64,000 bases of DNA from positions 34,775-98,774 of the IMG/VR virus record IMGVR_UViG_3300037883_000122. One strand, 5' to 3'. Under the pieces are notes generated by a model, which had not been told where the DNA came from, ran no database searches, and was given only the letters and a program-made list of their open reading frames with translations. This stretch comes from a virus. Of the stretch, positions 4,301 to 62,174 are shown one piece after another (position 1 is the first letter of the stretch; every line of letters begins with the position of its first letter). A program made the translations under genes and the position numbers.

Positions 4301-4335
4301 GACATAGTGGGGAGGCCTGAGCCTCCCCTTATGCC
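4301..4335. terminator. Bidirectional hairpin GACATAG-stem-TTATGCC
   Basis: Stem ggggaggc/gcctcccc between convergent genes, no U-tract. Confidence 0.7.
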
Positions 4336-4341
4336 CTCGAT

Positions 4342-5622
4342 TTACGAGGCCGTGTTCCACGGATTGAAGCCCGACGGAATAGCATTGACCCACGCGGTAG
4401 CACCAGCGTTGATTGTCAACTCATCGGTGACCGCATCCAGCGAGACGCCCAGATAGACTGCTTGTGCTACGCCTGCAGCGACGGCCAGCAACGACAGCGT
4501 AATGCCGCCTACACCCGTTGCCGGATTCTGGTTGGCTACCACATCCCCGTTCCATTGCTGGGTGACAGGATTGTAGAACCAAGCCAGCTTCGCATTCAGA
4601 TCGATCGCGACCCCAACGGTCTGGCCTGCTGCCGGTGAGACACCCAGGTCCTGTGCAATCGCACCGTTGTAGCGTACCCCCGCATCCGCCCCACTAGGCA
4701 AGGCTTGGATCGAGATGCCATTGGTGTCACCACCCAACTCACTGGAGGTAAGTTGATTGGCGTTGCAGACACCGAAAGCGACCGAACCAACCAGCGTGTT
4801 GATGGTGGCTTCTGCATAGTACTTACCTGAGGTGTGCTCCACCGTACCACGAACCGATTCCCAACCTGCTGCCGTACTGGTGGCCGTGAGGTTAGCGTTC
4901 GACAGCGTGATGCCTGCCGGAACCAAGCTGGCGTCCAGTTGATCCGTCGGATTGGCCGGAGGCGTGGTACCGCTCAGCTTGTCGATATTGTCCTGCACGA
5001 ACTGCTCGAGCGTTGCGTAGGCTTGCTGCACACTTTGCAATTGCTTGGTGAGCGCAATGACCTGTGCTTCGGGTGTCACCGTATTGGTGATATTCGCCTT
5101 ACGGGCCGCCTCAGCAAGATTGTGATCCGACTGAGACACATTCGTCGTCGGGGACACAATCACCGTCGTGATCGCCACTTGCGTGAGACCAACCGTCGTC
5201 TTCACGAGGTTAGCCAGCTGCTGTTTCAGGAACGTGAGGTCCACGTACTCGGGCAACACCCCGATGTCGATCGCCAGCATCAGTGCCTGATACGGGATAC
5301 CGCCTGAAGCCGGAAAGCTGGCAATGAAGGTGGTCGGTACATAGACCACCGCGCCAGAGCTTGACTGCAGCGTGACGATACAGACACCCGCACCCAGGTC
5401 AGCTGTGTACTGATCTTTGAGCGAGCCCGCGTTCTGGCCTTCTTGCGGCACGTAGTACAGGGAGTAAGGATCACCCCCTGCTGCGATAATGCCCTGCAAC
5501 TGACGGACTTCCAAACACTTGTACGACGCGGTCGCGGAGATCAACGCATCGTACGGTGCTGTCAGGCTCCAGACACCGGTGGTACCGACATCTGGAACCA
5601 GGCTAGTTGTAATAACAGCCAT
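4342..5622 (-). CDS. Putative virion protein with C-terminal SPRY/B30.2-like domain
   Basis: C-terminus ITLSNANLTA...SGKYYAE...GQTVGVAIDL...IPSGFNPW fits the SPRY pattern. Cotranscribed with the upstream structural gene. Confidence 0.65.
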   Translation of the reverse strand: MAVITTSLVPDVGTTGVWSLTAPYDALISATASYKCLEVRQLQGIIAAGGDPYSLYYVPQEGQNAGSLKDQYTADLGAGVCIVTLQSSSGAVVYVPTTFIASFPASGGIPYQALMLAIDIGVLPEYVDLTFLKQQLANLVKTTVGLTQVAITTVIVSPTTNVSQSDHNLAEAARKANITNTVTPEAQVIALTKQLQSVQQAYATLEQFVQDNIDKLSGTTPPANPTDQLDASLVPAGITLSNANLTATSTAAGWESVRGTVEHTSGKYYAEATINTLVGSVAFGVCNANQLTSSELGGDTNGISIQALPSGADAGVRYNGAIAQDLGVSPAAGQTVGVAIDLNAKLAWFYNPVTQQWNGDVVANQNPATGVGGITLSLLAVAAGVAQAVYLGVSLDAVTDELTINAGATAWVNAIPSGFNPWNTAS

Positions 5623-5634
5623 GAGGTGCTCCTA

Positions 5635-6948
5635 TTACGACCCGAACTGCGTGTTCGACTTGGCAGCGACCAGGTAGTCGATCGTGTTGTAGTTGTAGAC
5701 GATGTACAGGATGCCATTACGCAGGAGCTTGGTGTAGCCCAACGGAATGCTCGAGTACTGTGTCATCGTCTCAGCCACCTGGATCATCACAGCCAGCGCT
5801 TGCAAGAACGTCTGCGTAGCCTGACTCATGCGGGCGAAGTCCGTCGAGGTCGACGACACGGCGATCAAATCCGGGAAGATCTGTTGCAGTTCAAACAGGT
5901 TGTTGCGGTTCTGATCCGAGCAGATCACACCAATTTGCAACGACTTATACGGGTGAGCCATCACCGTGCCGTGAGCATTGATATGAGCAGAAGGATAACT
6001 AGCGAACTGGGGAAGCAGCGCAAGCGTTGCCGACAGGTTCGCAATGGGGCTGTATACCGCCGACGCATCGCTGGAGCCACTAGCCCGGCCCGCAATGGCG
6101 ACGTTCTGCCACAAAGGGACCATCGTGACCTCCGAACGCTTGAAGATGTCCGGGAAGATCGCGACCCACTCATCACGGGTGTGCGAGCTGTTGGCCAGAA
6201 TGTAGGCTTCCAGCGCGTCACTGATCGAGTCGACGTTATCGCCCGCCATCCCGTAGAGGATGATGGTCCAGTTCGTCGGGATCAGATTAGCAGCATTGTT
6301 CGGATCGTTCCAGTCGTACACCATCGTGATGATGTCCGACTCGGGATGACCTGCCTTGGCCGTGTTGACGTTCACCATCAACTGCGGCACCGTCACAGCG
6401 TTGACTTCAGCGAGCACCGACGAAGCAGCCTTAAAGAAATCGTCGAGCGGGGTAATCGGCGGCACGATGACGATCGTGAACTCGTCGTACTGGGACTGGA
6501 AACTGCCATCTGCCAACCAGATGCGGATGAAGGAACCCGGCGTGGCGAGATCCGTCCAGCTCACCCATTCGGGCACCCAGTGTGTCCCGTCAGTCACCAT
6601 GGCGCCCGACTGGAACGTGTTGGCAATCGTCTGGAACTGGGTCAGTGCACCAGCAAGCAACTGATCCGCGTACAGCTGGCCAGCGTTTTGCAGGGTCTGG
6701 TTGTAGAACCAGGCACAGATCTTCAGTACACGAGTCGCTAGATCGGAATCGACCACTTGGGCCGTTCCATCCGTGGCGCTCAAAAATGAGAGCAGCGTCA
6801 GATTCGGCGCGTTGGTTTGGTCAACGTATTCCCCGACGTCCTGGGAGTACGTGCGCGAGATCGTCGAGATTTCACCAATCGCATTGGTGGTGCCCGGCGT
6901 ATTGTTTGCGAACAGGCCATGCGTCGCAAAACCTTTCAGAGTGTACAT
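5635..6948 (-). CDS. Putative virion structural protein (phiKZ-like)
   Basis: 437-aa ORF with good SD (GGAGA) and phage codon usage, in a structural-gene context. Confidence 0.6.
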   Translation of the reverse strand: MYTLKGFATHGLFANNTPGTTNAIGEISTISRTYSQDVGEYVDQTNAPNLTLLSFLSATDGTAQVVDSDLATRVLKICAWFYNQTLQNAGQLYADQLLAGALTQFQTIANTFQSGAMVTDGTHWVPEWVSWTDLATPGSFIRIWLADGSFQSQYDEFTIVIVPPITPLDDFFKAASSVLAEVNAVTVPQLMVNVNTAKAGHPESDIITMVYDWNDPNNAANLIPTNWTIILYGMAGDNVDSISDALEAYILANSSHTRDEWVAIFPDIFKRSEVTMVPLWQNVAIAGRASGSSDASAVYSPIANLSATLALLPQFASYPSAHINAHGTVMAHPYKSLQIGVICSDQNRNNLFELQQIFPDLIAVSSTSTDFARMSQATQTFLQALAVMIQVAETMTQYSSIPLGYTKLLRNGILYIVYNYNTIDYLVAAKSNTQFGS

Positions 6949-7052
6949 CGAGGTCTCTCCAGCAAATCACAGGTCGTTGACACAGTGCGTGACAATGTGT
7001 CGGAAATCGATTAGAATAAAACTAAGCATAAAATGAAGCAATAGGGGTTATC

Positions 7053-7490
7053 ATGCTGGCATGGAAAACTGTTACCCTCTTGTGGCCGTTTCTAAAGGAG
7101 CTTTTTCTGGGGAAGAAGACGCTCCGGGAAGCCCTCAAGACAAACAAAGGGCGAGTCTTTGTGATCCTTGGGATCATTGGCTCGGTGATCTTGAACGTTT
7201 GGCTGGTCCCCAACATTGTCCGCATCTCCGCAGACTACGTAGACCTGAAGCACAGATACGATGACTTGAAGAAGTCTGACGATACTAAGCAGCCTGCGCC
7301 GCCAACGCCTCCGACCAAGGTGAAGACGGACATCGCCGCTGCCAAAGTTACTGACTCACTGCCCGCTGGCTATCGCTCTCCGGCAAGTGCGCCGGAAGTT
7401 CCCACGGCGACGGTGCAGCAGTGGTCCAGTTACGACGACACGCTGTCGCGGTTTAGTGCGATTGCTCAGCGTGAGCGGCATCAACGGTAG
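7053..7490 (+). CDS. Putative inner-membrane spanin (i-spanin)
   Basis: Single N-terminal TM segment (VFVILGIIGSVILNVWLV), short coiled coil, Pro-rich linker. Lies directly upstream of a lipoprotein. Confidence 0.6.
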   Translation: MLAWKTVTLLWPFLKELFLGKKTLREALKTNKGRVFVILGIIGSVILNVWLVPNIVRISADYVDLKHRYDDLKKSDDTKQPAPPTPPTKVKTDIAAAKVTDSLPAGYRSPASAPEVPTATVQQWSSYDDTLSRFSAIAQRERHQR

Positions 7491-10628: not shown

Positions 10629-10647
10629 TCCTGGCATCGCGAAGAAG

Positions 10648-10700
10648 GTCATAACCCACTAGCCCGCCCGAACGATTGGGAGAGCTAGTGGGTTTATGCC
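10648..10700. terminator. Bidirectional hairpin GTCATAA-stem-TTTATGCC
   Basis: Stem cccactagc/gctagtggg at a convergent junction. Confidence 0.7.
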
Positions 10701-10701
10701 G

Positions 10702-11526
10702 TTACTTCAGGATCTCGGTGATCTTGTCGACACTGGCGTTCACTGCCGTAGCGTAGGCGAGTACACGGTAGTAGATGACGGAGAAGAACTCGAGCTCGCT
10801 GGCGATCTGGAACGCACCTTCGGCGAGTTCCTGGGCGACTTCGGGTGCGCTCGATTCCAGCTTGCCATCCTTGAGCAGGCTGATGACCTTGTCCATCAAC
10901 TGACCGGCTTCCTTGACCTTGTGGTTCAGGGCCGTACGGTCAACGGAGTTCATCTGCTTGGACAGTGCGTCGACTTCGCCGAAGACGATTTCCCAGTCCT
11001 TGTTGCGCGAGACGACGTCGCCGTACTTGCGCTTGGTCTCGTGGCTGCCAGGTTTGAAGAGCGCGCCCATTTCCTTCAGGATCTGGTCACGTTCCGTTTG
11101 CATGCCCTGGTACACCTGGACGCTGTTCTTCGTCTCGAAGCGCTGGAACTCATTGGTGATGAGCATGGCCAGATACGTGGTGTACGTATTCAGGAGGTCG
11201 CGCACCTTCAGCGCATGGTCAGCGGCTTGATGCAGCACGTTGCCGAGTACGACGAAGTCAGCGTCGAAGCCTTCGGGCACCACCACGGCGAGCGGGCTGA
11301 TGTCGACGAAGTTGTGTTTCTCGACAAGCTTGATGAAGTTGCGTTGATCGCGCGAGAGCGGGATCGGTTTGTCGTTGGCCGAGAAGCGCGCCACGAAGTT
11401 GCTGAAATGCGATTTGATGTCCGGCATGACCTTCTTGAGCATGCTGGTGACATCGAGAGTCTGGACGCTGAAAGTCTCCAGCGCCACGACGTCACGATGG
11501 TGACGCAGAGTTTGAAGCGAGTCCAT
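10702..11526 (-). CDS. Putative head protein with short propeptide
   Basis: AAGGA SD. VALE site near the N-terminus matches the A-x-E prohead protease motif. Confidence 0.6.
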   Translation of the reverse strand: MDSLQTLRHHRDVVALETFSVQTLDVTSMLKKVMPDIKSHFSNFVARFSANDKPIPLSRDQRNFIKLVEKHNFVDISPLAVVVPEGFDADFVVLGNVLHQAADHALKVRDLLNTYTTYLAMLITNEFQRFETKNSVQVYQGMQTERDQILKEMGALFKPGSHETKRKYGDVVSRNKDWEIVFGEVDALSKQMNSVDRTALNHKVKEAGQLMDKVISLLKDGKLESSAPEVAQELAEGAFQIASELEFFSVIYYRVLAYATAVNASVDKITEILK

Positions 11527-16273: not shown

Positions 16274-17014
16274 ATGAGTCAGAAAGCAGTTGCCGTAGTC
16301 TACGCCGAGCTAGACGCTTTGCTAGACACGCGTGCAGGAACACTGGCTCGCTTGAGCCAGGAAGTAGCAGCTGAAGTCTTACGCGGTAACTACCACAAAC
16401 GTGAATCCGACCAATTCGCGGGTGTGGACATGAAGGCCTACCGGGTCCTTTATGCGAAACGGGATGTCGAAACGCTTAAAGCGTCACGTCCTACCAAGGC
16501 GCTGCTCCTCATGAGCGCACTTGTCCGGTATTTGAAGGAACAGGCGACTGTACGTCCGTACCATGAGACTACGAAAGTCGTCGTCAACACGTTCCCGTAC
16601 AAGCTGGACAGAGATGAAGAAGCTGAGTTGGGCACGGTCATTGCGACCTGGATTTCAGGGCTCGCGCCGGTTGAGCTCGTACATATGCGCCCACATGAGC
16701 TTACTCCTCTGTACATCAAACAGCAGTCGTATTCGAGTATGTTGATGTACGAGTACGATGAATGGATGAGTCTGCATTACGCAGCCGACAATAAGCACGC
16801 AAAGCCTATCCAAGATGTTGCTATATTCGCACCAGCGATATACTTCGCGGAAAAGCCCAGCGATGAAGAAGTTCAGCAAGCGATCGACATTGCAGCCCAT
16901 CCACTGCAAGCTGTTGAAATCTTGGCGAGATCCCTCGTGGGTCTCAACTTGATTGATGTCGAATACTTCAGCATCATTCGACCTTCCGGACCGACACAAG
17001 GCCCCGTACACTAG
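16274..17014 (+). CDS. Hypothetical protein, possibly inactive HAD-fold
   Basis: N-terminal VYAELDALLDTR resembles a degenerate DxDxxL motif. Confidence 0.55.
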   Translation: MSQKAVAVVYAELDALLDTRAGTLARLSQEVAAEVLRGNYHKRESDQFAGVDMKAYRVLYAKRDVETLKASRPTKALLLMSALVRYLKEQATVRPYHETTKVVVNTFPYKLDRDEEAELGTVIATWISGLAPVELVHMRPHELTPLYIKQQSYSSMLMYEYDEWMSLHYAADNKHAKPIQDVAIFAPAIYFAEKPSDEEVQQAIDIAAHPLQAVEILARSLVGLNLIDVEYFSIIRPSGPTQGPVH

Positions 17015-17071
17015 ACCCCACTTGTGAGCGGTCTAGTGTATGGAGCACCGTATAGGTCAACGGATCGGGTT

Positions 17072-18899: not shown

Positions 18900-19478
18900 A
18901 TGAATGCAGTGATTGAGACCAAAGACCAGCTTGTGCATGCCCCGACTCACCCCTTGGTCCTGGAAGACGGTGTCAAGCACATTAACATCGACACCTACGC
19001 CAAGACGGAACTAGGGAAGATGTTGGTCCATAAGTACCCGGCACGTTTTGAGCATCCCAAGTTCGGCCGCTTCCGTTCGGTCGAAGGTTTCTGGGGCTTT
19101 ATTCGTACGGGGGCCCGTGAAGATCGTTGGCGTTATCTGTCCGGCATGCCTGCCAAGCGCGAAACTCGCAACTTGGACAAGCGCTGGATCAAGAATTTTC
19201 ACCAGATCATTATGGAGGCCAACTTCCACAAGGTGAGTCAGAACGAAGAGATCAAGAAGTTGATGTTGGCTTCAGCGCTCCCGTTTGATCACTACTACAT
19301 CTTCCGCAGTGAGCAGATGAAACCGGATGACCCCGGCCTACCGACCCGTCCGCAGATCGCGAGCTGGCTGTGTGAAGGTTTCGAGGAAATCCGTCGCCTG
19401 CTGCGCGAAGGTAAGCAACCCGTAGTCCCTGACTACGAGGATGTGTACCTGGGCGATAACGAAGTCATTAATCGCTAA
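18900..19478 (+). CDS. NADAR-like (T4 gp30.3-like) protein
   Basis: HINI...TELGKML...F.HP.FGRFRSVEGFW...AK...KVSQNEEIKKLM. GGAGA SD before ATG 18900. Confidence 0.55.
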   Translation: MNAVIETKDQLVHAPTHPLVLEDGVKHINIDTYAKTELGKMLVHKYPARFEHPKFGRFRSVEGFWGFIRTGAREDRWRYLSGMPAKRETRNLDKRWIKNFHQIIMEANFHKVSQNEEIKKLMLASALPFDHYYIFRSEQMKPDDPGLPTRPQIASWLCEGFEEIRRLLREGKQPVVPDYEDVYLGDNEVINR

Positions 19479-19494
19479 ACGATGTAGTGCGACG

Positions 19495-19539
19495 CGGGGG
19501 GCCTTCGGGCTCCCCGTATGCTCTCTTCTCTTTTTTTTT
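19495..19539 (+). terminator. UUCG hairpin followed by TATGC and a T-tract
   Basis: cgggggGCC-TTCG-GGCtccccg, then TATGC and a T9 run. Confidence 0.75.
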
Positions 19540-19554
19540 GCTTTCGAGGTCGAT

Positions 19555-21012: not shown

Positions 21013-21025
21013 GGTTTCAACTAAG

Positions 21026-21062
21026 GTCATAGACGCCCAGGGTCACCCCTGGGCGCTATGCC
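21026..21062. terminator. Bidirectional hairpin GTCATAG-stem-CTATGCC
   Basis: Stem cgcccaggg/ccctgggcg at a convergent junction. Confidence 0.7.
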
Positions 21063-21066
21063 GTCA

Positions 21067-30017: not shown

Positions 30018-31646
30018 ATGCCTCAAAAATCCGACGTGCCATTTAACGTAAGCATCTTACAGCTTACGGAGAAAAAGCTCGTAGGGGTGAAGCCTGTTAC
30101 CAAGCAGGACATCTTCGATGGCGCGACGCGCAACTTCGATGAGAGCGGTCTTTTCTCTGTTTCCATCTTCGGCAAAGTCGGGGATGAGAAACGTTCCCGA
30201 CGCTTTTCTTTCATCGACATCAAGGCCCCGATCTTTCACCCAGTGATCTATCGCGCACTGGTGGCCATGAAGCGCCTTTATGCCGGTATCATGGCGGGTA
30301 GCGAATACGCCATCTGGAATCCGGAAATCAAGGACTTCGAACGTTCCAACGCTGTGGTCGGACGCACGGGCTTTGCGTTCTTCCTCGAGTACTGGAAGTT
30401 CATCGAGTACGGTGAGACCAAATCGGTCACCCGCGACCAGAACCAGCAACTGATTAAGAAGTTCGCTGACGTGGCGATCACCAGCAAAGTGATCGTGATG
30501 CCTGCCGGGATGCGTGACGTGGAACTCGACGGTGGTCGGGTGCAGATGGACGAGATCAATGGCTTCTATCGGAAGCTGCTCGCCATTGCCAACACCATTC
30601 CCGAGAGCGCGGTGAAGTCCTCGCCGGAAGTGATCAATACAGCACGCTTTAATCTGCAGCTCTCCTTCAATCAGCTCTACGAGCTGTTGGAGAACATGGT
30701 GCAGGGTAAGAAGAAGCTGCTGCTTGGTAAGTGGGCCTCGCGTCGGATTCAGGACGGTACGCGAAACGTGATTACGGCGATGGATACGTCCAACCCGTAT
30801 CTCGGCGCACCGGATGCCGTGGGCTTTAACAACACCGTGATCGGTTTGTACCAGCTGCTCAAAGCCGCGCGACCGATTGCGATGTACCACATCCGCAATG
30901 GCTTTCTCTCGAAGGTGTTCTTCGAAGTGGGTCGACCGGTCAAGCTCATCGACAAGAAGACGCTGCGCCCGGTGGAAGTGACGCTTAAGCCCCAGTCGTA
31001 CGATCGCTGGATGACCAACGAAGGGATTGAAAAGGTCATCACCAGCTTTAGCGACGAGAACATGCGCCACAAGCCGCTGGAGATCGAAGGCTACTATCTG
31101 GGTCTGATGTATAAGGGCCCGGACGGTACGTACAAGATCTTCCAGGACATCGGCGATGTGCCCATTGATCGCAGTCGCAAGGACGTCACACCGCTCACCT
31201 TCGTCGAGCTGCTCTATTTGTCTACGTTCCCCTACATCAACAACCTGCCGCTCTTTGTGACGCGGTACCCGGTGACCGGTGTGGGCTCGATCTATCCGTC
31301 GATGTCGTATGTGAAGACGACCATCATTGCGGAAGTGCGTAAGGAACTCAATGATAACTGGCAGCTCGGTTCCGAGTCTAAGATTGCGTACCAGTTCCCG
31401 ATTGCGGGAGGTGCGTTCATCAACTCGCTCGTGCCCCACTCGGCCAAGCTCGGTAAGCTCGGCGCTGACTTCGATGGCGACACGGCCTCGGCTAACGTGA
31501 CGTATTCGGACGAGTCGATTCAAGAGGTGAAGACTCACCTTACGAAGAAACGCGCCTACGTCGGTACCGACGGTTCGTTCATCTCCAGTATCGATGTCGC
31601 GACCGTGGCACTGGTCATGCACAATCTGACAGGTTACGATTCATGA
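30018..31646 (+). CDS. Virion RNA polymerase beta' subunit, N-terminal/catalytic part (phiKZ gp180-like)
   Basis: Catalytic ADFDGD, GLFSVSIFG, VMPAGMRD, TRYP. Confidence 0.93.
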   Translation: MPQKSDVPFNVSILQLTEKKLVGVKPVTKQDIFDGATRNFDESGLFSVSIFGKVGDEKRSRRFSFIDIKAPIFHPVIYRALVAMKRLYAGIMAGSEYAIWNPEIKDFERSNAVVGRTGFAFFLEYWKFIEYGETKSVTRDQNQQLIKKFADVAITSKVIVMPAGMRDVELDGGRVQMDEINGFYRKLLAIANTIPESAVKSSPEVINTARFNLQLSFNQLYELLENMVQGKKKLLLGKWASRRIQDGTRNVITAMDTSNPYLGAPDAVGFNNTVIGLYQLLKAARPIAMYHIRNGFLSKVFFEVGRPVKLIDKKTLRPVEVTLKPQSYDRWMTNEGIEKVITSFSDENMRHKPLEIEGYYLGLMYKGPDGTYKIFQDIGDVPIDRSRKDVTPLTFVELLYLSTFPYINNLPLFVTRYPVTGVGSIYPSMSYVKTTIIAEVRKELNDNWQLGSESKIAYQFPIAGGAFINSLVPHSAKLGKLGADFDGDTASANVTYSDESIQEVKTHLTKKRAYVGTDGSFISSIDVATVALVMHNLTGYDS

Positions 31647-34600: not shown

Positions 34601-36187
34601 TACATGCGGATCAAGGGCTACGAGCGGATGGCAGGTGCCGTGTACGCTGAACTGATTCGCTCGATCCGGATTCACAACGGTCGTCCGGGGAAGAACAAGC
34701 ATCCGATCGATCTGAACCCGTACGCAGTCTGGACGGCGATTCAGACCGACCCGGCCAAGAACCAGGTGTCAGACATCAACCCGGTGGAAAACCTGAAAGA
34801 CGTGGAAGCTGTCACGTTCTCGGGCACTGGGGGTCGGGGTTCACGCTCGATGACCAAACGGACGCGTGTGTACCATCGCAACGACATGGGGACGATCTCC
34901 GAGTCGACGAAGGACAGCTCGGACGTGGCCATCAATACGTATCTGTCGGCTGACCCGCAATTCGATTCACTGCGCGGGACCAGTAAGGGCTATGTGGTAG
35001 GGGAAACGGGGGCGACGGCACTTCTGTCTACTGCGGCACTTCTGTCACCGGCCTCGGACAAGGACGATGCAAAGCGGGTGAACTTCGTGGGGATTCAGCA
35101 CTCGCACGGGATTGCGTGTGAAGGCTACACCCAGGCACCGGTACGCACAGGCTACGAGCAGATTCTGGCTCACCGTACGTCAGATCTCTACGCCTTCACG
35201 GCGAAGAAGGACGGCAAGGTGATCAGCGTCACGGACACGGGCATGGTCGTGGAATACGCGGATGGTACGCGTAAGGGGATTGACCTGGGTCGTCGCTACG
35301 GTAACGCAGCAGGACTCACGGTTGCTCACATGGTCGTGGCGGATGTTACGGAAGGGCAAGAGTTCAAGGCAGGAGATTTGCTCTGCCACAACACTGGGTT
35401 CTTCGAGCGGGATACGTTGAATCCGAATGGCGTGGTGTGGAAAGCAGGGGCGATCGTTAAGACCGTTCTGATGGAGTCAACTGACACACTGGAAGACTCC
35501 TCGGCGATTAGCAAGCGGGTCTCGGGGCTGCTCATGACGAAGACCACCAAGGTTCGCAAGATCGTGGTGAACTTCGAGCAGTCGGTTCGGCGGCTGGTAA
35601 AGCTGGGCCAAACCGTGGCAAGCGAGGACATCTTATGCATAATCGAGGACGCGGTCACCGCGAACAACAACCTCTTCGATGAAGAGTCGCTGGACACTCT
35701 GCGTTTGTTGTCTGCGCAGGCTCCGCAATCAAAGTCGAAGGGTGTGGTTGAGCGCATCGAAGTCTTCTATCATGGCGACAAAGAAGACATGTCGGAATCG
35801 CTTCGACAACTGGCAAATACGTCGGATCGTGAATTGGCTAAACGTCACCGTTCTGCGGGACGCAAGAGCTTTACGGGGAGCACCGATGAGGGCTTCCGGG
35901 TAGATGGGGAACCCTTGGCGTTGGATACCATGGCCATCCAGATCTACATCACGACGGACGTCGGAGCCGGTGTGGGCGATAAGGGCGTGTTTGCCAACCA
36001 GCTGAAGACGGTGTTCGGCAAGGTGATGGAGCGTGAACTGAAGACGGAGTCCGGTGTGACCATCGACTGTATCTTCGGTTACAAGAGTGTCTACGATCGC
36101 ATTGTGAATAGCCCTGTGATCATCGGCACCACCACCACCCTGCTGGATGTGATTGCGAAGCGAGCAGTCGCTGCCTACAAGAGCTAA
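31643..36187 (+). CDS. Virion RNA polymerase beta subunit, large N-terminal part (phiKZ gp178-like)
   Basis: GTISESTKDSSDVA, DDAKRVNF..IQ, EDSSAIS, GDKGVFANQLK are RpoB motifs. ATGA-coupled to beta'. Confidence 0.92.
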   Translation: MIFFNNFFRSFGVRTAGQLTNPPMPKVDKLELPRNSMYHYVSESAVDIGPRSDEFLFRHVARPIPMSHVIELLSDKGMPRRVAHPIETEIRKYHQHHRRYRRQLNLQAGLRDQNVPFVMNYGFLTGLYRYQRSMFTEYNRWYNIASTVWQNIGKLAAQTDRHQFIQIRLPRVLPGLTDLRIASESLVDGEVLNYATEGMKLAIESADAGWLQSMDVYPNMVDNVAMEAMNQRTLRVFHTPETLMMLELWKWAGPNRHASVISHVDDKYLDRINLLFVESGRWFVVNLGVINRWRIATEEELAANPQANTKGLEPVQLQRRLLRMSMSLFQVRTDVGPEVQLATNAEEPVQNADQQVEQSEQEEGHPNTPDSIYEEGDPGEQFDAQKGDEEEEHNGVVMLPATNPKVDPKTGETLLKPDTIKSYDETFDDGKALVETELAEDFKFDPNEDAQIEKDLAELDRLSRHVHDQQEKVETTDINDIAQPEDGVIAMLNRLADEGMVSAAEYRRLSQLAQAPKSITSPDNKTNLADFVVIQPHQTVITESKSIKDIPTVLDKTMLKSSLLEFDQRYIEELLEKDVAAMVLALQNAGICVTAYDREEVHDVMGSYVMYHIRVVPVQGTASTLHFKLPLLSEDGTYMANGTRYRIRKQKGDMPIRKIAPDRVALTSYYGKLFVSRSEKRVNDKAAWLRNAIMAMGLDNENTTVVNLHPGDMFDNLFECPRLYSTMAMGFRGFTIDSAHFPKKLNFLFDHSKREALYGDAVIKRLEHNGSIICGQAEGGEYIVMDKNGTMALVTPRDDGQVNNGDIVPDFEKLLDLEMKKAPVEFCELKVLGRTIPLGVILGYQLGLEKLMKALKVTARRVHAGQRLNLEDFEYAIQFADETLIFDRRDTFASMILAGFNEYHRGIRNYSVYEFDRRGVYLNILEAGGRSERYLREIDLMYQMFVDPITKELLLSMHEPVKFQGLLLRSVQMLLSDHHPDELDSKYMRIKGYERMAGAVYAELIRSIRIHNGRPGKNKHPIDLNPYAVWTAIQTDPAKNQVSDINPVENLKDVEAVTFSGTGGRGSRSMTKRTRVYHRNDMGTISESTKDSSDVAINTYLSADPQFDSLRGTSKGYVVGETGATALLSTAALLSPASDKDDAKRVNFVGIQHSHGIACEGYTQAPVRTGYEQILAHRTSDLYAFTAKKDGKVISVTDTGMVVEYADGTRKGIDLGRRYGNAAGLTVAHMVVADVTEGQEFKAGDLLCHNTGFFERDTLNPNGVVWKAGAIVKTVLMESTDTLEDSSAISKRVSGLLMTKTTKVRKIVVNFEQSVRRLVKLGQTVASEDILCIIEDAVTANNNLFDEESLDTLRLLSAQAPQSKSKGVVERIEVFYHGDKEDMSESLRQLANTSDRELAKRHRSAGRKSFTGSTDEGFRVDGEPLALDTMAIQIYITTDVGAGVGDKGVFANQLKTVFGKVMERELKTESGVTIDCIFGYKSVYDRIVNSPVIIGTTTTLLDVIAKRAVAAYKS

Positions 36188-39517: not shown

Positions 39518-39524
39518 ACCACTT

Positions 39525-39560
39525 GCGTAGCCCCAGGGGGAAACCTCTGGGGTCTATGCC
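39525..39560 (+). terminator. Hairpin followed by CTATGCC
   Basis: ccccagggg/cctctgggg stem after the protease stop codon. Confidence 0.65.
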
Positions 39561-39588
39561 CGAAATTCGCACGATTCAAAGATTTGAT

Positions 39589-43590: not shown

Positions 43591-43603
43591 TCGTTGAATC
43601 GAC

Positions 43604-43640
43604 GGCATAAGACGGGGACCTTCGGGTCCCCGTCTATGAC
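43604..43640. terminator. Bidirectional hairpin GGCATAA-stem(UUCG)-TATGAC
   Basis: 10-bp perfect stem gacggggacc/ggtccccgtc at a convergent junction. Confidence 0.75.
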
Positions 43641-43668
43641 GTTCTTTCTTTTTTGGCCTAAATCAGGC

Positions 43669-44586: not shown

Positions 44587-44667
44587 GTAAAACTCCTGTT
44601 CTTAAAGGCTAACAGCTGAATGGATTGTGACTGCGCAGGAGGTGTGAGCCCCCTGCGCCTTATGCCG

Positions 44668-46806
44668 TTAGGCCGCCACTTGCTGACCCGGCGTGGTGGT
44701 GAGATCCGTCGCGCGGTTAGCCTGGATGATGAGCGTCTGCACCGTCGGCATGTTGTTCGCGTAGATCTGCAGCATCAGCGTCCAGCTGTAGCCACGGGCC
44801 TGGTCCGCATCCGTGTAGTACGTCTTCGGGATGATGGTGAACCGGCTGTCGAAACGCTGGTTGGTCTGGTTAATCGCTTCCTTGTTCACGCGGTCGACCA
44901 GCTGGCTCTGGGTGAGCTTGCTGTTACCCGAGAACTTCTTGCGGATGCGTTCGCCGACCTTTTCCAACTCCACACAACCCATGGCTGTGAAGAAGCTGGT
45001 GAGCACCGACGTGTCGTTGTTGTACACCGTCTTGAACGCCGGGAAGTAGTACGAACGACGACCGTACGCTTCCACCCAGACGAGGCCGTTGTCCCAGTCC
45101 TGGTTGCGAACCGTAGCAGGCGTGAACACAACGTTGATGTCGGTCATCAGCGTCACTTGGTTCAGCGGGTCTTGGTCGAACGAATTCGCCGACTTCCACA
45201 CACCGTCACCCGAACCCATGTAAGCCGCGGCCTTCGCTGCGAACTCGATGGTCATCGGCAGACGCTGGTTGTACGTGCTCGAGATGAGCGTACCCGAACG
45301 ACCGATGATCATGCCGCGCATCGTAGCCGTACCGAAGTAGTCCGACTCCGGATACATCTGCAAGCGCGTACGCAGTGCGATCGCCAGTGCCGACTCTTGT
45401 GCTGCCGTGAGCGGCGTGATGGCGTTGGCCACCGTATCGTGCGTGGCGAGCACGACGAACGTGTCCTTGCGCACCGAGATGAACTGGCACAGATCGTACT
45501 TCGTCTGCAACGGGAAGCCCGTGTCGTACATGATCGACTCGGGATACGTCGCCATGTCCTGCAGATACGAGTTCGGATCGGCGTAGCCAGCCACTGCAGC
45601 CGACACCAGCGTCGCGAACGACAGGTCGCTCATCGTACCGTCGCCACCGCCCGATGCGTACACCGTGGTGTTCTCGGTGAAGCGCGTTGCGTTACCAGCG
45701 GACGTGATCACCTGGAAGGTGTGGTACGGCACGTTCTGCGAGCTCACGCCCGACAGGAAGTTGAACAGCCACTGTTCGTTGGCAGCGCCCGTGAAGTCAC
45801 TGAACGAATCTGCGTGCGGGAATTCCGCCGCGTAGAACTGTTGCAACAGCGTGGCGATGTTCGCGTCGTAGACACGCAGCACACCAAACGGACCCCAGGT
45901 CGGCGGGTTGCCGCCTTGTGGGTTCAGGTTCTGGTAAGCCTGGATCAGACGGTCGCCGATGTACAGCTGTTGCGTCGTGTTCTTGTCGATGGTCTTCGGC
46001 TTGAACGTCAGGTCGTAGTACTGCGAACCGTCGTTGCCTGCGACCACTGCTGCCGTGCCGCTGTCCGAAGGCTTCTGCGCGAACGCGAAGCGGAACGGAT
46101 AGACACCTTCGTCCGTGATGTACGAGTCGTTGATCGGCGTGCTCGAAGCCGACGTCGGAGCCCACATACGGAAGCCGTTCCAGTTGCCTGCTGCGCCGAC
46201 GTGCGACACTTGCAGGTCCATGATCGGGTAACGCGTCGATTGGCCACCTTGCCCGTCGGTGAGATCACCCACGACTTGCGTACCAGCGCCGACCAACGAG
46301 TTGCCGTCTTCATCCGGCTGGATGTACTGCGTGACCCACTTGACTTGGAAGCCAGCGAGGGTTGCACCCTGGCCAGTTACCGGCACGGGGTCGCCGTTCG
46401 TGTCGAGCTTGATCGAGCCGTCGGCATTACGAACGTAGTCCGTAACTTGCGTGCCCAGCACGTCCAGATACACGCGCAGGTTTGCACGCGGCGCGGCATC
46501 CGCCGGGATCACGCGCTCCACCATGTACTGGTTCGCGGCCGGGTTCAGCGCGTTGACCACCAGAGCCGTCTGGTGGTTGAAGTACGGCTTGAGCGGATCG
46601 AACGTGTCAGCGCCGAACATTTGCGTCGCCGAATCACCTACGACCAGTTGCGGCTGGTTCGGGCCAGGGCCAGTCTGTGCGTACAGATAGACCTTCGCCA
46701 GGTGAGTCGGAAGGGATTCCGGAGTCGGAACCAACGCTCGGGTGCTGTTATCTTGCACACCGAGGAAGTTCGTCATCGGAGCGGCGTTGATAATTGCATT
46801 CGCCAT
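44668..46806 (-). CDS. Tail sheath protein (phiKZ gp29-like)
   Basis: 712 aa. INAAP...G.QD.S, YDTGF, YPESDYFGT, PAFKTVY motifs. Strong codon bias. Confidence 0.87.
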   Translation of the reverse strand: MANAIINAAPMTNFLGVQDNSTRALVPTPESLPTHLAKVYLYAQTGPGPNQPQLVVGDSATQMFGADTFDPLKPYFNHQTALVVNALNPAANQYMVERVIPADAAPRANLRVYLDVLGTQVTDYVRNADGSIKLDTNGDPVPVTGQGATLAGFQVKWVTQYIQPDEDGNSLVGAGTQVVGDLTDGQGGQSTRYPIMDLQVSHVGAAGNWNGFRMWAPTSASSTPINDSYITDEGVYPFRFAFAQKPSDSGTAAVVAGNDGSQYYDLTFKPKTIDKNTTQQLYIGDRLIQAYQNLNPQGGNPPTWGPFGVLRVYDANIATLLQQFYAAEFPHADSFSDFTGAANEQWLFNFLSGVSSQNVPYHTFQVITSAGNATRFTENTTVYASGGGDGTMSDLSFATLVSAAVAGYADPNSYLQDMATYPESIMYDTGFPLQTKYDLCQFISVRKDTFVVLATHDTVANAITPLTAAQESALAIALRTRLQMYPESDYFGTATMRGMIIGRSGTLISSTYNQRLPMTIEFAAKAAAYMGSGDGVWKSANSFDQDPLNQVTLMTDINVVFTPATVRNQDWDNGLVWVEAYGRRSYYFPAFKTVYNNDTSVLTSFFTAMGCVELEKVGERIRKKFSGNSKLTQSQLVDRVNKEAINQTNQRFDSRFTIIPKTYYTDADQARGYSWTLMLQIYANNMPTVQTLIIQANRATDLTTTPGQQVAA

Positions 46807-52337: not shown

Positions 52338-52346
52338 CGCTTTGGC

Positions 52347-52385
52347 GTCATAGAGCCGCAGGGTTTCCCCTGCGGCTCCTATGCC
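52347..52385. terminator. Bidirectional hairpin GTCATAG-stem-CTATGCC
   Basis: Stem agccgcaggg/ccctgcggct at a convergent junction. Confidence 0.72.
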
Positions 52386-52388
52386 GTT

Positions 52389-54659
52389 TTATCGCCAGGG
52401 GCGATTAGCAGCGGTCGCGTACACACCGTAACCACTCGGTGCGCCAAACACGTCACGGTGCGTAACTGGCACATCACTCGTCGTGAGCATGCCGGTGTTA
52501 TGCCCCAGGAACGTGTTGTTCTGCTGCTGTTGATACAGATTCGAATGACGAACCTTATTCTTCTTGGTTTCCCGCGCTGAGCGAATCAGTTCGTCCACCG
52601 AGTAGATCTCGTCCTGTTCCAGAATAATCTTCCGGTCCAGCAAACGCAGCTCTTGTTCCAAACGTTGGGAGACAAAGTCATCATGTTCTCCCGTGAGCTC
52701 GTTGTAGATCTCTTCGATGCGACTACGGAAGGCTTGCTGCTCCATCCGGCGGTAGAAGTCACTAGCCGACTCCTGCTGCGGCGTCTTGACCGCACACATG
52801 ACCTGGCGCGGATCGATGCCGTAGTGTTGCAGGTTCTTGCCGTGCATGAGGAACCAGTGGCACAGCAGCCAGCCGATCACCAAGTCGTCGTGTTCGCCGT
52901 CTTCGTGGTCGATGCGACCATTCTTGTACACGAGACCGAGGATCTGACCTGCCAACATCTTGTCGTGCACCTTCATGCCAGCGCGTTGTGCGGCAGCTTG
53001 CAGCACCTGACCATACAACGCATTGCGGCTGTTGGCACCCGAACCCGAAGTCGCATAACCGAAGGTCGTCTTGTAGCGCACGAAGATGTCGGTCGGACGA
53101 CGACCCATCGGCACCTTGATTTCCTTGTAGCGATCCGGATACTCGTCGTAATCCTGCACCACCTTGTTGAAGATACGCTTGAACGGATCTTCCCCGTAGT
53201 TCGGCATCATCAGCAACAGGTAATCCAGCAGCATCGCCCCAGTGGAACGACGCTCAATCACGGCGGTGATATTCTGGTAACGCACCAGCGTATCGCAGAC
53301 CCACTTCGAGAACGTAATCAGGTTCGTCTCATTGTAGGAACCCGCTGCCACCACATCGAGTGTTTCCACATCCATCAAGACAAGTGAGATGTCATCGCCG
53401 CCTCCTGCTTCGGAGGTGTCCATGCCCAGTACAAACTTGCCTGTGGCCATGCGCTCTTCGATCTCTTCCTGCGGAATGTACCAACGCGTGATGTAGCCAT
53501 CCGGATCGCTGATCGAGGTGTACATCTCGTCCAGACGGGAGGCTGCAATCATCTCGGCAGTACCGGTCGAGAGCGGGGAGCTTTCCGTACCCGAAGTCCA
53601 CAGGTTGAAGTAATCTCGATTCGCATCGTCGCCCGTTTGCAGCGATTCTTCGATCTTCTGGCGCAGCCATTCGTCGCTCTTGCCCAACTGACGGTGGCTG
53701 AACGTACCGTTGATACGGAACTTGCCCGCACGGTTGTTCTGACGCACCATCTTGTCGAGCTCGGCCCAGTTGCGGCAGTCGAAGAACTTCTCGGTCCAGG
53801 TCGAGGACTCTTCGATGAGCTTGTAGATGAAACGCCCGTCCTTGTCGTCCTTCTTGCCTGCAGTCGTCGTCAGGATGGTACCGTACGGGGCGCCTGCGGC
53901 CTTCGCACGCTCCACTGCAGCACCAGTAGCAGCCAGGGCTGCCGGAAGCGCAATGGCGATGTTCGGCTGGAACGGCGGCTCGTCGATGTGGAAGATCGCG
54001 GTCGTCAAACCCCGACCCATGTTGTACGCACGCTTCGGGCTCGATTGCGGCACGTGCGTGTTGTACGAATTACCCAGCGCCTTCACGGTCACTTCTTCAC
54101 CGTTCTGCGCATCGTCCTTCGTACGTTGACTCAGGTACGGCGGGAGTTCCGCCATGATTTCCTTGATCCGCTCGATGTTCTTGCGGCGCAGGTTATCGTC
54201 CTTCGTCAACAGGTTGATAGACGTGTCGGTACAGACCAGGTTCATCAGGTAATTCATCAGCGTATCGGTCGAGAACGATTTACCGGTCTGACGAGGCTGA
54301 ATCAACGTGAAGAACACGTGGTTAAAGAACGACCAGAACAACGCGATGTTGGCCCGGTTGGCTTCCAGTGGTACGGCATCACTACCGGAGTTGCCAGGTG
54401 CTCGGGCAATCTCTCGGAAGAAGTACCACGGGTTCACCTTACACTCGGCGGCGATCATGTACATCTGGTCAGCCGTCAAATGCTTACTGAATGGGTCGAC
54501 TCCCTGCAGCTTCGGATTAACGAGCGCAAGGAGGAAAGCGTGATTCTTGATACCCATGCTGCGATACACCGCGGCCAGACGAATCCAGGACTTATTAGTC
54601 GTCTGCGTGTCGATGATTGCAGTGGGATATCGAAACCAATCTTCCTCAAACAGGATCAT
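52389..54659 (-). CDS. terL: Terminase large subunit
   Basis: Walker A PRQTGKS, Walker B HIDE, coupling motif TTT, nuclease GMDTS and HDD motifs. Confidence 0.92.
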   Translation of the reverse strand: MILFEEDWFRYPTAIIDTQTTNKSWIRLAAVYRSMGIKNHAFLLALVNPKLQGVDPFSKHLTADQMYMIAAECKVNPWYFFREIARAPGNSGSDAVPLEANRANIALFWSFFNHVFFTLIQPRQTGKSFSTDTLMNYLMNLVCTDTSINLLTKDDNLRRKNIERIKEIMAELPPYLSQRTKDDAQNGEEVTVKALGNSYNTHVPQSSPKRAYNMGRGLTTAIFHIDEPPFQPNIAIALPAALAATGAAVERAKAAGAPYGTILTTTAGKKDDKDGRFIYKLIEESSTWTEKFFDCRNWAELDKMVRQNNRAGKFRINGTFSHRQLGKSDEWLRQKIEESLQTGDDANRDYFNLWTSGTESSPLSTGTAEMIAASRLDEMYTSISDPDGYITRWYIPQEEIEERMATGKFVLGMDTSEAGGGDDISLVLMDVETLDVVAAGSYNETNLITFSKWVCDTLVRYQNITAVIERRSTGAMLLDYLLLMMPNYGEDPFKRIFNKVVQDYDEYPDRYKEIKVPMGRRPTDIFVRYKTTFGYATSGSGANSRNALYGQVLQAAAQRAGMKVHDKMLAGQILGLVYKNGRIDHEDGEHDDLVIGWLLCHWFLMHGKNLQHYGIDPRQVMCAVKTPQQESASDFYRRMEQQAFRSRIEEIYNELTGEHDDFVSQRLEQELRLLDRKIILEQDEIYSVDELIRSARETKKNKVRHSNLYQQQQNNTFLGHNTGMLTTSDVPVTHRDVFGAPSGYGVYATAANRPWR

Positions 54660-54755
54660 GGTTTATCCCCTACGTGTGGTTGGACAATGGTCTAAGATCA
54701 TAAAACCGGAAGTGACTCCGTACTTAAACCGCATTATACGTGTCATAACAAGTAG

Positions 54756-54798
54756 GGCATAAACCCCCAGCAATCCCGTGGAATCGCTGGGGGTATGC
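54756..54798 (-). terminator. Hairpin followed on the minus strand by TTTATGCC
   Basis: cccccagc/gctggggg stem flanked by GGCATAA and TATGC. Confidence 0.6.
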
Positions 54799-54808
54799 AG
54801 TAGGAGCT

Positions 54809-56503: not shown

Positions 56504-56545
56504 TTAGGGTCCTCTGTGGGCTACGGATACACAGAATGTGGCAAC

Positions 56546-56575
56546 GGCATAGAGGCGGAGCCGCAGCCCCGCCTC
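56546..56575 (-). terminator. Hairpin followed on the minus strand by CTATGCC
   Basis: gaggcgg/ccgcctc stem preceded on + by GGCATAG. Confidence 0.55.
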
Positions 56576-56609
56576 CGTACCGAACGACTAATCCGTTCCT
56601 GGATTGGTC

Positions 56610-57788: not shown

Positions 57789-58426
57789 GGGTTCTTCCTC
57801 TAGGGTGTAGGAACGGAAAAAGGTGCTCACAATATTTGAGCCTACAGGATAAAAGATCACCAGCGTAGGCGGGTCCTAACAGGATAGAAGAGCACGATAA
57901 ATTCCCGCCGCCCGCCGCGCCCCCAAGAAAGGTTTGCAACGCTGGACGGGTTTTCGGCCATGCGGTGTCATTCATGTACTATCTAAACTAATGCCTGTCC
58001 AAACAATCTCTGTCGCTATCGCTCTGGTCTTTTCCTTCCCCTCGCGCCAGCGCTCGATCTTCCTTTGCGACAGCCCTGCCAAACTTTTTAAAAAAGGGGG
58101 AGGGGGACAAGCCCTCCCCCGGCTAGTGACAGACAAGTTTGCTAAGTACTTGATTACAAAGACTATTTCTCTATTCTAGTAAAAAAATACTGCATAGCTT
58201 ATCACTTATGTGTCAAGGAGCAGAGCGACGCGGAGCGAAGCGGAGTAGGGAATAATAGCGTAGAGGGGGCGGGAGCCCCCTCTTTATTATACTCCCAGAG
58301 AGGATAGCGCTTGGAATCATAATCTGTAAGAATAAGATATTTTCTTACCAGAAGTAGAACTCGTGAAAATCGGGCCGGGCACACGCCTGGCTCTTATGAC
58401 GTCAAAGCTTGATCCTAGAATATTTC

Positions 58427-58439
58427 AAACCTATATTCT
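58427..58439 (+). promoter_or_regulatory. Early promoter variant AAACCTATATTCT
   Basis: Similar to the 63037 motif. Heads a cluster of small genes. Confidence 0.5.
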
Positions 58440-58510
58440 ACGGGTGAGCTAGAGCAAGTAGAAAGTTCTAAGCTTGGTTAATTCCTTCCTCTCAAGCAAT
58501 TGGAGAACAC

Positions 58511-59473: not shown

Positions 59474-59487
59474 TTCGACGACCTAGC

Positions 59488-59517
59488 GGCTAGGGGGCAA
59501 CCCTTAGCCAGTATGCC
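59488..59517 (+). terminator. Hairpin followed by TATGCC
   Basis: ggctaggg/cccttagcc stem with a GCAA loop. Confidence 0.6.
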
Positions 59518-59560
59518 GTCTTTTCCATTCTTTCCAATTCTGATTCCGGAGCCTAACATC

Positions 59561-60552: not shown

Positions 60553-60585
60553 AACTCCCTTGCCCCTCTCCCGAGGGGTGAGTTC

Positions 60586-60614
60586 AAGAGGGCCTTCGGG
60601 TCCTCTTTTTTTTT
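60586..60614 (+). terminator. Canonical intrinsic terminator (UUCG loop, T9)
   Basis: aagagggcc-TTCG-ggtcctctt followed by a T-run. Confidence 0.8.
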
Positions 60615-61195: not shown

Positions 61196-61205
61196 GAGTA
61201 CTATC

Positions 61206-61466
61206 ATGCATTCGATCGCACTGACTCGTTACAATCTGTCGCGCTTTCAAAAGGCAGATCGTCAACGGTGTCAGGATACCTACGTGCTCGTTAAACGCGA
61301 GCAGGAGCGTCTCGAGACCCGTGGCAAGGGTTTGATGGTGAGTAACGATGTGCTGCGCTTAGCAGCCACGCACTTTCGGGCTGGGATCATCTTGCAGAAG
61401 TACAACCTGTTCGGCATTGCTGCAGACCAATTCGATCGCGCACTACAGCTACTTGCTTTGTTCTAA
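61206..61466 (+). CDS. Hypothetical protein
   Basis: AGGAG SD. Confidence 0.7.
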   Translation: MHSIALTRYNLSRFQKADRQRCQDTYVLVKREQERLETRGKGLMVSNDVLRLAATHFRAGIILQKYNLFGIAADQFDRALQLLALF

Positions 61467-61514
61467 CAAAGGGTGACTGCGAATCACCTTGCAATTCAGA
61501 CCACTGAGTCTTAC

Positions 61515-62129
61515 ATGAACCAGAAACCGCTTTCTTTCTTCTTCTCCAATTACGACTTCAAGAACTTCGAGGCAGTGAACGCCGACCAGGGCTTTGTCGA
61601 GAACCACATCAACACCCAGTACGAGGCCGACGAACGCCCCATCTTGCGACTGGTGCGGCGCTTTGTGCGCGAGCTCTCGGGTCATCCGACCGTGCATACG
61701 GACTTCTTCTTTGATGCCGGTGCGCACGAAGGCATGTGGCGCCGCAAGGAAGCCTATCGTGTCAACGTCGACGGCCTGGCGGTGTTGAAGATCAACATCG
61801 AGATGGGAGAAGATGCAGGGACCTACGACATGGCTCCGGCTACGTACGCGCGCCTCGCCTCCGTGTCGGAAAACTTCCACGGCAAGCACTTCGGTGATAC
61901 TAAGGAAGCAGGTCTGGACTACATGTACTGCTTTAGCCAGATCCGCAATCTGGTGAGCCAGCTGTCGAACAACTGCGTGTACAAGGTCGACGAAGACCAC
62001 TCGGGCTTTGCGCTGACGATCATGCCGTTGACCGAGGGTCTGGCCAAGTACCAGGCTGAGGCAGCAGCTGGTAAGGAACCGGAATCCACCGGCACCTTCA
62101 TCAAGATCCAGTTGCGCAATCCGCTGTAA
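61515..62129 (+). CDS. Hypothetical protein
   Basis: ATG 61515, strong codon bias. Confidence 0.7.
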   Translation: MNQKPLSFFFSNYDFKNFEAVNADQGFVENHINTQYEADERPILRLVRRFVRELSGHPTVHTDFFFDAGAHEGMWRRKEAYRVNVDGLAVLKINIEMGEDAGTYDMAPATYARLASVSENFHGKHFGDTKEAGLDYMYCFSQIRNLVSQLSNNCVYKVDEDHSGFALTIMPLTEGLAKYQAEAAAGKEPESTGTFIKIQLRNPL

Positions 62130-62138
62130 GCCCACAAG

Positions 62139-62174
62139 GGCATAAGAGGCGAGCCTCGGGCTCGCCTCTATGAC
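62139..62174. terminator. Bidirectional hairpin GGCATAA-stem-TATGAC
   Basis: 10-bp stem gaggcgagcc/ggctcgcctc at a convergent junction. Confidence 0.75.

Follow-up and report, generated by a model that had tools for sequence, protein, structure and literature searches.

Hairpin-box units in the window

The window, meaning here the whole stretch of 64,000 nt that was analysed, is included in a viral contig of 98.8 kb, which showed 88% identity and collinearity with the Burkholderia jumbo phage FLC9; a literature search on phage FLC9 found no paper. The window codes for phiKZ-type multisubunit RNA polymerase beta-like subunits in two + strand genes at 30018..36187 (542 aa and 1514 aa; phrog_2986 and phrog_3148), and homologs of the 542-aa subunit are common to 313 jumbo phages. 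Judged from the sequence of these two genes, the phage belongs to the phiKZ-like group, whose polymerases read the terminator signal considered below. The GC content was 56% for this genome versus 38% for the phiKZ stretch examined, and no tRNA or Rfam family was found within the window.

Sequence analyses revealed 13 hairpin loci with 20 strand-specific boxes in the window. The box starts 0-2 nt past a GC-rich hairpin of free sequence, the stems being unrelated between loci, and has the consensus Y-TATG-(C/A)-C-(G/C)-T-Y (Y-TATG-M-C-S-T-Y), which is longer than first described. With the T of TATG as position 0, the logo showed Y at -1, C or A at +4, C at +5 (about 90%), G or C at +6 and T at +7. 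A preliminary description of this DNA had listed 11 sites with a GC-rich stem-loop followed by TATG(C/A/T)C, and all 11 were recovered on the strands given there; two further loci, absent from that description, were found at 44633-44658 (box 44661, +) and 58372-58393 (box 58395, +). The loci occupied six of the seven convergent junctions, six of the 38 codirectional and one of the eight divergent junctions, as assigned from our own gene calls, and the seventh convergent junction (17001-17046) had a different hairpin. As had been reported for most copies, a U-tract was generally absent: a T run of at least four within 16 nt accompanied only 5 of the 20 window boxes, and in FLC9 such a run lay within 12 nt of 13/84 boxes. 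A canonical U-tract directly after the hairpin is not a feature of the element.

At the six convergent junctions (listed earlier as 4301, 10648, 21026, 43604, 52347, and 62139), the left arm indeed reads G(K/A)CATA and the right arm TATG(M)C, because one hairpin serves both strands, and these loci are putative two-way terminators. In the locus at 4298..4337, hairpin 4309-4328 is flanked by TATGCCCT (+, T at 4330) and TATGTCCC (-, T at 4306), and the FLC9 ortholog has a changed stem. The locus at 10644..10702 has a long two-tier hairpin with TATGCCGT (+, 10695) and TATGACCT (-, 10653), while at 21022..21066 hairpin 21034-21055 lies between TATGCCGTC (+, 21057) and TATGACCT (-, 21031). At 43598..43655, hairpin 43610-43635 is accompanied by TATGACGTT (+, 43635), with a T-rich run after it, and by TATGCCGTC (-, 43609). 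The locus at 52341..52390, between a virion-protein gene (+) and the terminase gene (-), carries hairpin 52353-52378 with TATGCCGTT (+, 52380) and TATGACGCC (-, 52352), and showed a loop flip and compensatory stem changes across seven relatives. Finally, at 62132..62180, hairpin 62145-62169 carries TATGACGTT (+, 62169) and TATGCCCTT (-, 62144); in FLC9 its flanks are kept and the inner stem is replaced. The two arms are imperfectly complementary, as first described, with the mismatch at the position adjoining CATA/TATG. The CATA..TATG arrangement is an imperfect palindrome, interrupted in every case by a single mismatch and a single bulge, and a search for perfect palindromes through CATA/TATG gave nothing special, the flanks being bulge-offset from the stem. 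At 14 of 17 two-way sites, one strand had C after TATG and the other had A, and C on both strands never occurred.

At the one-way sites only the transcribed strand carries a box, which has no need to pair with the 5' flank. Putative one-way terminators on the + strand are located after the gene ending at 19478 (19490..19540; hairpin 19495-19516, TATGCTCT at 19517, then a T-rich run) and between + strand genes at 39522..39562 (hairpin 39530-39553, TATGCCCG at 39555) and 59484..59522 (hairpin 59488-59509, TATGCCGTC at 59512). Those of the - strand lie between - strand genes at 54752..54802 (TATGCCCT on the - strand, 54761), where a + strand TATG at 54794 showed no conservation in FLC9, and at 56541..56586 (hairpin 56552-56575, TATGCCGTT on the - strand, 56551). 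The two newly found loci have a + strand box. In the locus at 44625..44670, hairpin 44633-44658 is followed by TATGCCGTT (44661), + strand only and antisense to both - strand neighbours (the tail sheath gene and the next gene); in FLC9 the box is kept and the stem has diverged. A + strand open reading frame at 43594-44619 would turn the 44661 box into a gene-end terminator, but codon-position GC content spoke against this frame and it was rejected. The locus at 58366..58404 (hairpin 58372-58393, TATGACGTC at 58395) lies in a 650-bp non-coding AT-rich stretch at a divergent junction.

Enrichment, position and conservation

The motif-plus-hairpin scan proposed in the preliminary description was carried out on the contig and on FLC9. 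Prediction with Lfold (70-nt window) yielded over 1,000 hairpins on each strand, the DNA being GC-rich, and was dropped as useless, and a lax threshold of dG <= -9 gave a 45% background; a compact hairpin criterion (dG <= -14, within 3 nt of the box) was used instead. By this criterion 27 of the 214 TATGs of the contig and 84 of the 782 of FLC9 had a compact hairpin, compared to a mean of 1.05% for 12 control tetramers (contig TATG, binomial p = 7e-21), and the hairpins corresponded to 20 loci in the contig and 67 in FLC9. TATG was also the top-enriched tetramer directly after perfect GC stems (21 vs 2.3 expected in the contig; 70 vs 7.7 in FLC9). Within genes TATG was strongly avoided on both strands, with 374 occurrences on the sense strand against 759+-21 after synonymous-codon shuffling, which is expected if TATG is a potent signal.

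The boxes lie predominantly downstream of genes: a same-strand gene stood upstream of 23/27 boxes in the contig and 66/84 in FLC9, with two-way copies at the convergent junctions. An opposite-strand gene was upstream of 10/84 boxes in FLC9 (about 12%), and the boxes at 44661 and 58395 are examples in the window; a role confined to gene ends leaves these copies unexplained.

Comparison with FLC9 and six IMG/VR relatives revealed compensatory stem differences and one flipped loop, with GTCATA and TATGCC fixed, demonstrating that the box stays constant while stems covary between relatives and pairing is preserved. The hairpin-TATG motif was weak in RSL2, and no enrichment was detected in the 40-kb stretch examined of SEGD1 (SPN3US-like), indicating that the motif is not universal among phiKZ-like phages.

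Correspondence with mapped phiKZ and 201phi2-1 terminators

The preliminary description had implied that the element is novel, yet it has already been described for phiKZ-like phages. A consensus of hairpin-BYTTATKYYGT was derived from 61 mapped terminators of phiKZ (Putzeys et al. 2024, microLife, PMC10914365), and comparison of the 3' box with BY-TTATK-YYGT and with phiKZ DNA revealed a near letter-for-letter match. A hairpin followed by TATG(Y)(Y)GT was seen directly in phiKZ DNA, including two-way CATA..TATG arrangements at gp125/126 and gp129/130. When published phiKZ RNA 3' ends (Table S4, bioRxiv 10.1101/2023.10.13.562163) were located on this DNA, they fell, counting from the T of TATG, at +2, +4, +4, +5, +5, and +5, positions obtained by ONT-cappable-seq, which does not discriminate between true termination and trimming back to a hairpin. 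Both elements have a GC hairpin followed by (Y)TATG-YY-GT, stand after genes, are two-way at convergent junctions and occur with phiKZ-type multisubunit RNA polymerases. Unlike the phiKZ terminator, the box described here mostly lacks the T-rich lead-in (TT before ATG), has C or A at +4 where phiKZ has C or T, and is known from sequence, whereas the phiKZ copies are RNA-mapped. The stems here are GC-rich and of free sequence, largely without the CCYCCCC ... GGGRRGG composition of phiKZ, and few have pyrimidine/purine polarity; that composition is a consensus drawn from phiKZ and not something on which function depends. For 201phi2-1, 132 termination sites were mapped, 15 of them two-way, and motif A was reported by its authors to resemble the phiKZ motif strongly (PMC11512511); it is by this published description that motif A is likened to the present box. 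Canonical Rho-independent terminators also have a GC-rich hairpin a few nt before the RNA 3' end and two-way versions with complementary flanks at convergent genes, but differ in that a fixed heteropolymeric box occurs here and the U-tract is absent in 15/20 window copies.

The hairpin-TATG signal is real and far beyond chance, and it is largely ordinary, being a version of the mapped phiKZ / 201phi2-1 stop signal; since the motif is already published, the discovery is modest.

Probable transcription termination and alternative explanations

These data make it very probable that the hairpin-box units serve an FLC9-like Burkholderia jumbo phage as intrinsic transcription terminators of the phiKZ type. 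A fixed box would replace the usual U-tract behind a free-sequence GC hairpin, acting as a polymerase-specific pause or release signal, and the phage's own multisubunit RNA polymerases would stop within or just past it. At convergent pairs a single hairpin with a box on each strand would stop both transcripts. By homology with phiKZ, RNA ends are expected at the boxes of this phage; a search for RNA runs containing this DNA found none.

Three readings had been offered in the preliminary description, and the phage-polymerase terminator is the one that stood, through its match to the phiKZ/201phi2-1 consensus, its gene-end position and the phiKZ 3' ends in the box. The late-promoter reading did not. 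According to it, the non-virion polymerase (nvRNAP) starts at the post-hairpin TATG (G = +1) and either restarts the next gene or, where genes converge, launches antisense RNA. The late promoters of phiKZ have TATG as their consensus, with the G at +1, and nvRNAP transcription depends on it (Yakunina 2015, PMC4666361), and the mapped phiKZ start P075 (145659), at a TATG 10 nt past terminator T064, indicates in the entries consulted that terminator-promoter cassettes exist. However, the six two-way sites account for 12 boxes, about half of those in the window, and each of these points into a convergent gene, with nothing there for a promoter to drive, so that a position upstream of a drivable gene is not characteristic of the element. 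The box also keeps a +4..+8 tail (MCSTY), whereas phiKZ late promoters (PMC4666361; nvRNAP-promoter structure, PMC12809450) share the tetranucleotide and have neither an upstream hairpin nor a conserved downstream tail. Furthermore, hairpin-less intergenic TATGs form a separate class with other flanks, T-rich at -3..-1 and without the CGT tail. Members of this class precede genes, among them the tail-sheath gene and the 2239-aa tail gene, and at several codirectional junctions the terminator box is followed 14-30 nt later by a second, promoter-like TATG of this kind. Among the entries listed for six hairpin+TATG terminators of phiKZ there were TTS and transcription-unit entries and no start-site entry. 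The late-promoter reading is accordingly highly improbable, and use of the box as a restart promoter is unlikely.

RNA processing, in which read-through transcripts are cut or trimmed, the hairpin guards the new 3' end and the box is a nuclease or protein recognition site, would fit the mapped 3' ends as well as termination does, given the limit of the method, and would agree with a box conserved as sequence and with the dispensable 5'-flank pairing at one-way sites. We consider it quite unlikely, because the phiKZ 3' ends lie 5-7 nt past the stem, within the box and not at the stem base, and because the same box occurs on both strands at convergent junctions, where the obvious need is to stop polymerase collisions. 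A spacing of 5-7 nt past the stem is typical for intrinsic termination. The imperfect CATA..TATG palindrome, with its constant mismatch and bulge, could also reflect constraints on the DNA, as in a cruciform, a palindromic site bound by a protein, or a mobile repeat, acting independently of transcription. Such an element is extremely improbable: the unrelated stem sequences indicate that the loci are not mobile-repeat copies, and the mobile-repeat reading was rejected on this ground; only the transcribed strand has a box at one-way sites, stems covary with pairing preserved, and in phiKZ the equivalent elements lie where RNA ends have been mapped.

Within the terminator reading, one tentative and rather doubtful extension is that a shared pocket under the polymerase beta-lobe reads the TATG of both the terminator box and the late promoter. 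The pocket binds the non-template-strand TATG at initiation and, on this view, would grip it again during elongation, causing a pause 5-7 nt past the hairpin that would stand in for the U-tract. A shared pocket would explain why the box persists unchanged in a GC-rich genome from which the T-run is gone, why the RNAs of phiKZ end 1-2 nt beyond the G, and why genes avoid TATG. A literature search found no statement linking the terminator-box TATG to the promoter-reading pocket and, to our knowledge, the termination mechanism of non-canonical phage polymerases is unstudied.

The results extend the terminator signal mapped in phiKZ to a lineage of Burkholderia jumbo phages that is distant, GC-rich and soil-borne, and define the conserved core of the signal as TATG-M-C-G-T, with the T-run excluded. 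The C/A rule at two-way sites and the avoidance of TATG within genes are small points that are new. The signal may be used to annotate transcription units in uncultured jumbo phages and to design in vitro termination assays for non-canonical phage polymerases.

Phage relatives and gene content

The window spans bases 34775-98774 of an IMG/VR viral contig of 98,774 bp. Comparison with the Burkholderia jumbo phage FLC9 (LC667451.1, 321,833 bp, host B. glumae) revealed 88% DNA identity to the window and a collinear arrangement. Every gene in the FLC9 annotation is labeled "hypothetical." PHROG profiles identified two adjacent plus-strand genes (30018-31646 and 31643-36187) encoding phiKZ-type RNA polymerase beta-like subunits, and further matches were to a tail sheath, a terminase, an SbcC-like nuclease subunit and a tail/lysozyme protein of 2239 aa. 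For the 542-aa polymerase subunit, homologs occur in 313 jumbo phages; next after FLC9, among the matches listed, come those of Ralstonia phage RSL2 and Burkholderia phage SURPRISE13 (~48% identity). On this evidence the phage belongs to the phiKZ-like group as a distant, GC-rich (56%) member. The SbcC-like gene (708-3194, minus strand) would encode a subunit of a palindrome-specific nuclease, and the terminators of the same genome are all imperfect palindromes.

Hairpin-linked TATG boxes

On inspection, all sites listed in the preliminary description looked as described. Genes were predicted from codon usage, and their stop codons matched those annotated in FLC9; on this basis the window contains 13 loci with 20 strand-specific boxes, at 6 of 7 convergent, 6 of 38 codirectional and 1 of 8 divergent junctions; two of the loci (44633 and 58372) were absent from the earlier list. 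The proposed hairpin and motif scan revealed enrichment of TATG after GC stems in the contig and FLC9. In the six positions that surround the 3' terminus of a perfect GC-rich stem, TATG was the most enriched of all 256 tetramers (contig, 21 observed vs. 2.3 expected; FLC9, 70 vs. 7.7). A compact hairpin (dG <= -14, at most three unpaired stem bases) lay within 3 nt of 27 of the 214 TATGs in the contig (p = 7e-21) and of 84 of the 782 in FLC9 (p = 1e-55), the mean for 12 control tetramers being 1.05%. Most copies do lack a U-tract, as first noted, with a T run of at least four nearby in only 5 of the 20 window boxes.

Aligned on the first T of TATG (position 0), the box consists of a pyrimidine at -1, TATG at 0 to +3, C (62%) or A (27%) at +4, C (~90%) at +5, G or C at +6, T at +7 and a pyrimidine at +8, and it begins 0-2 nt after the hairpin. 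At one-way sites, which carry the box on one strand, TATG showed no consistent pairing with the 5' flank, which marks the box as a sequence signal and not a stem extension. The left CATA of a two-way site is the opposite strand's box. Of 17 two-way FLC9 loci, 14 combine a C at +4 of one strand with an A at +4 of the other and none has C at both, while C occupied 74% of +4 positions at one-way sites (p between 5e-5 and 1e-8); the window loci tied to this pattern are 10648, 21026, 43604, 52347, and 62139. In most cases, too, the spacer between stem and box is one base longer on one side than on the other. As a result, one mismatch and one bulge invariably interrupt the long palindrome, and they fall where the motif is degenerate, at its only two such points. 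The reason may be that a long perfect palindrome is avoided, or that the box has to stay unpaired.

FLC9 and six IMG/VR contigs all retain GGCGTCATA and TATGCC at the junction that follows the virion-protein gene (52347), and their stems vary in both sequence and length, with compensating changes. The loop of this hairpin (52353-52378 in the window) is GAAA instead of TTTC in one IMG/VR relative, with the stem arms kept, which looks like a loop inversion within the palindrome. Among 23 contig/FLC9 orthologous sites, the diverged ones (44645, 52365, 56563, 58382, 62157, -28025, and -19306) had rebuilt stems and retained the box of the transcribed strand; the plus-strand TATG at 54794, on the non-transcribed strand, was lost in FLC9.

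The sole convergent window junction without the standard element (17001-17046) has an 11-bp stem of mixed composition (TACACTAGACC) with TATG within its 3' arm. Two adjacent hairpins occur at 60559-60607, the second of which (AAGAGGGCC..GGTCCTCTT) is followed by T8 and is a canonical U-tract terminator, unlike the TATG-box type elsewhere. The divergent junction at 57861-58510 is a 650-bp AT-rich non-coding stretch with several strong hairpins (58096-58120, with a T-run on the minus strand; 58262-58283; and 58372-58393, with the TATG box); it gave no tRNA and no Rfam match, and could house early promoters or small RNAs. Two ORFs, 43594-44619 (plus) and 43669-44586 (minus), are nearly coextensive on opposite strands. 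Codon-position GC content favored the latter over the former, so that the plus-strand box at 44661 is antisense to both neighbors.

Probable role in termination and its alternatives

In the Pseudomonas phage phiKZ, ONT-cappable-seq mapped 133 termination sites, with 61 intrinsic terminators sharing a common hairpin followed by BYTTATKYYGT, and six two-way terminators between convergent genes (Putzeys et al., 2024, PMC10914365). In 201phi2-1, motif A is closely similar to the phiKZ motif and 15 two-way sites are reported (PMC11512511). The box of the window and FLC9 fits the phiKZ consensus nearly letter for letter. In phiKZ DNA (100-150 kb), TATG followed GC stems 23 times vs. 1.9 expected, the tail there being YYGT; the CATA..TATG arrangement of two-way sites is seen at gp125/126 and gp129/130. 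Enrichment was weaker in RSL2 (6 vs. 0.9) and Erwinia phage Simmy50 (5 vs. 0.8, spelled TATGCCG), and none was found in the 40-kb stretch scanned of SEGD1, an SPN3US-like phage. Published termination coordinates (Table S4, bioRxiv 10.1101/2023.10.13.562163) were placed on phiKZ DNA; at six hairpin and TATG terminators (100-150 kb) the RNA 3' ends lie at +2, +4, +4, +5, +5, and +5 from the T of TATG. The mapping of RNA ends proposed as a check thus places phiKZ 3' ends at the box, and this, with the consensus fit, supports the sequence-specific terminator for phage RNAP initially suggested. The element is very probably an intrinsic terminator for the phage polymerases that depends on the hairpin and has a fixed box where a U-tract would otherwise stand. 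End-mapping alone does not separate termination from RNA processing at the hairpin and box, a reading we consider unlikely.

The preliminary description had also proposed a terminator-coupled late promoter, and TATG, with G as +1, is indeed the phiKZ late-promoter core, necessary but not sufficient and with no conserved downstream sequence (Yakunina, 2015, PMC4666361). However, the promoter-like intergenic TATGs of this phage form a separate class with different flanks, lacking both hairpin and CGT tail and T-rich at -3 to -1. They face genes downstream; at divergent junctions these include the tail-sheath gene and the gene for the 2239-aa tail protein. In phiKZ, too, the mapped start P075 has its own TATG, located 10 nt past terminator T064. 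The hairpin-linked box is therefore very probably a stop signal, and its service as a late promoter is very unlikely. Several codirectional junctions have, 14-30 nt past the terminator box, a second TATG that lacks a hairpin and precedes the next gene by 15-90 nt; these are candidate terminator-then-late-promoter cassettes (second TATG at window 54747, minus strand, and FLC9 187784, 236346, 258792, 264297, and 147316); restart, where present, seems to use this second TATG.

Implications for phage polymerases

TATG was strongly depleted in FLC9 genes, to about half of the number expected from synonymous-codon shuffling, on both the sense (374 vs. 759 ± 21) and antisense (166 vs. 306 ± 14) strands, and its Markov-2 ratios (0.66 and 0.54, respectively) were among the five lowest of 256 tetramers. 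This avoidance fits a tetranucleotide acted on by phage polymerases anywhere. The promoter-reading pocket would also grip non-template TATG during elongation, so that the enzyme pauses; that the pocket doubles as a pause element in this way is put forward tentatively, and the link between promoter TATG and terminator box was not stated in the phiKZ-like structural and transcriptome literature examined. The box is also present in a long one-direction gene block of FLC9 (120-200 kb), which presumably consists of early genes transcribed by the virion polymerase; in that case a pocket model would need to apply to both enzymes. The hairpin and TATG family is well supported here and useful for annotation, as an element of an already known kind.
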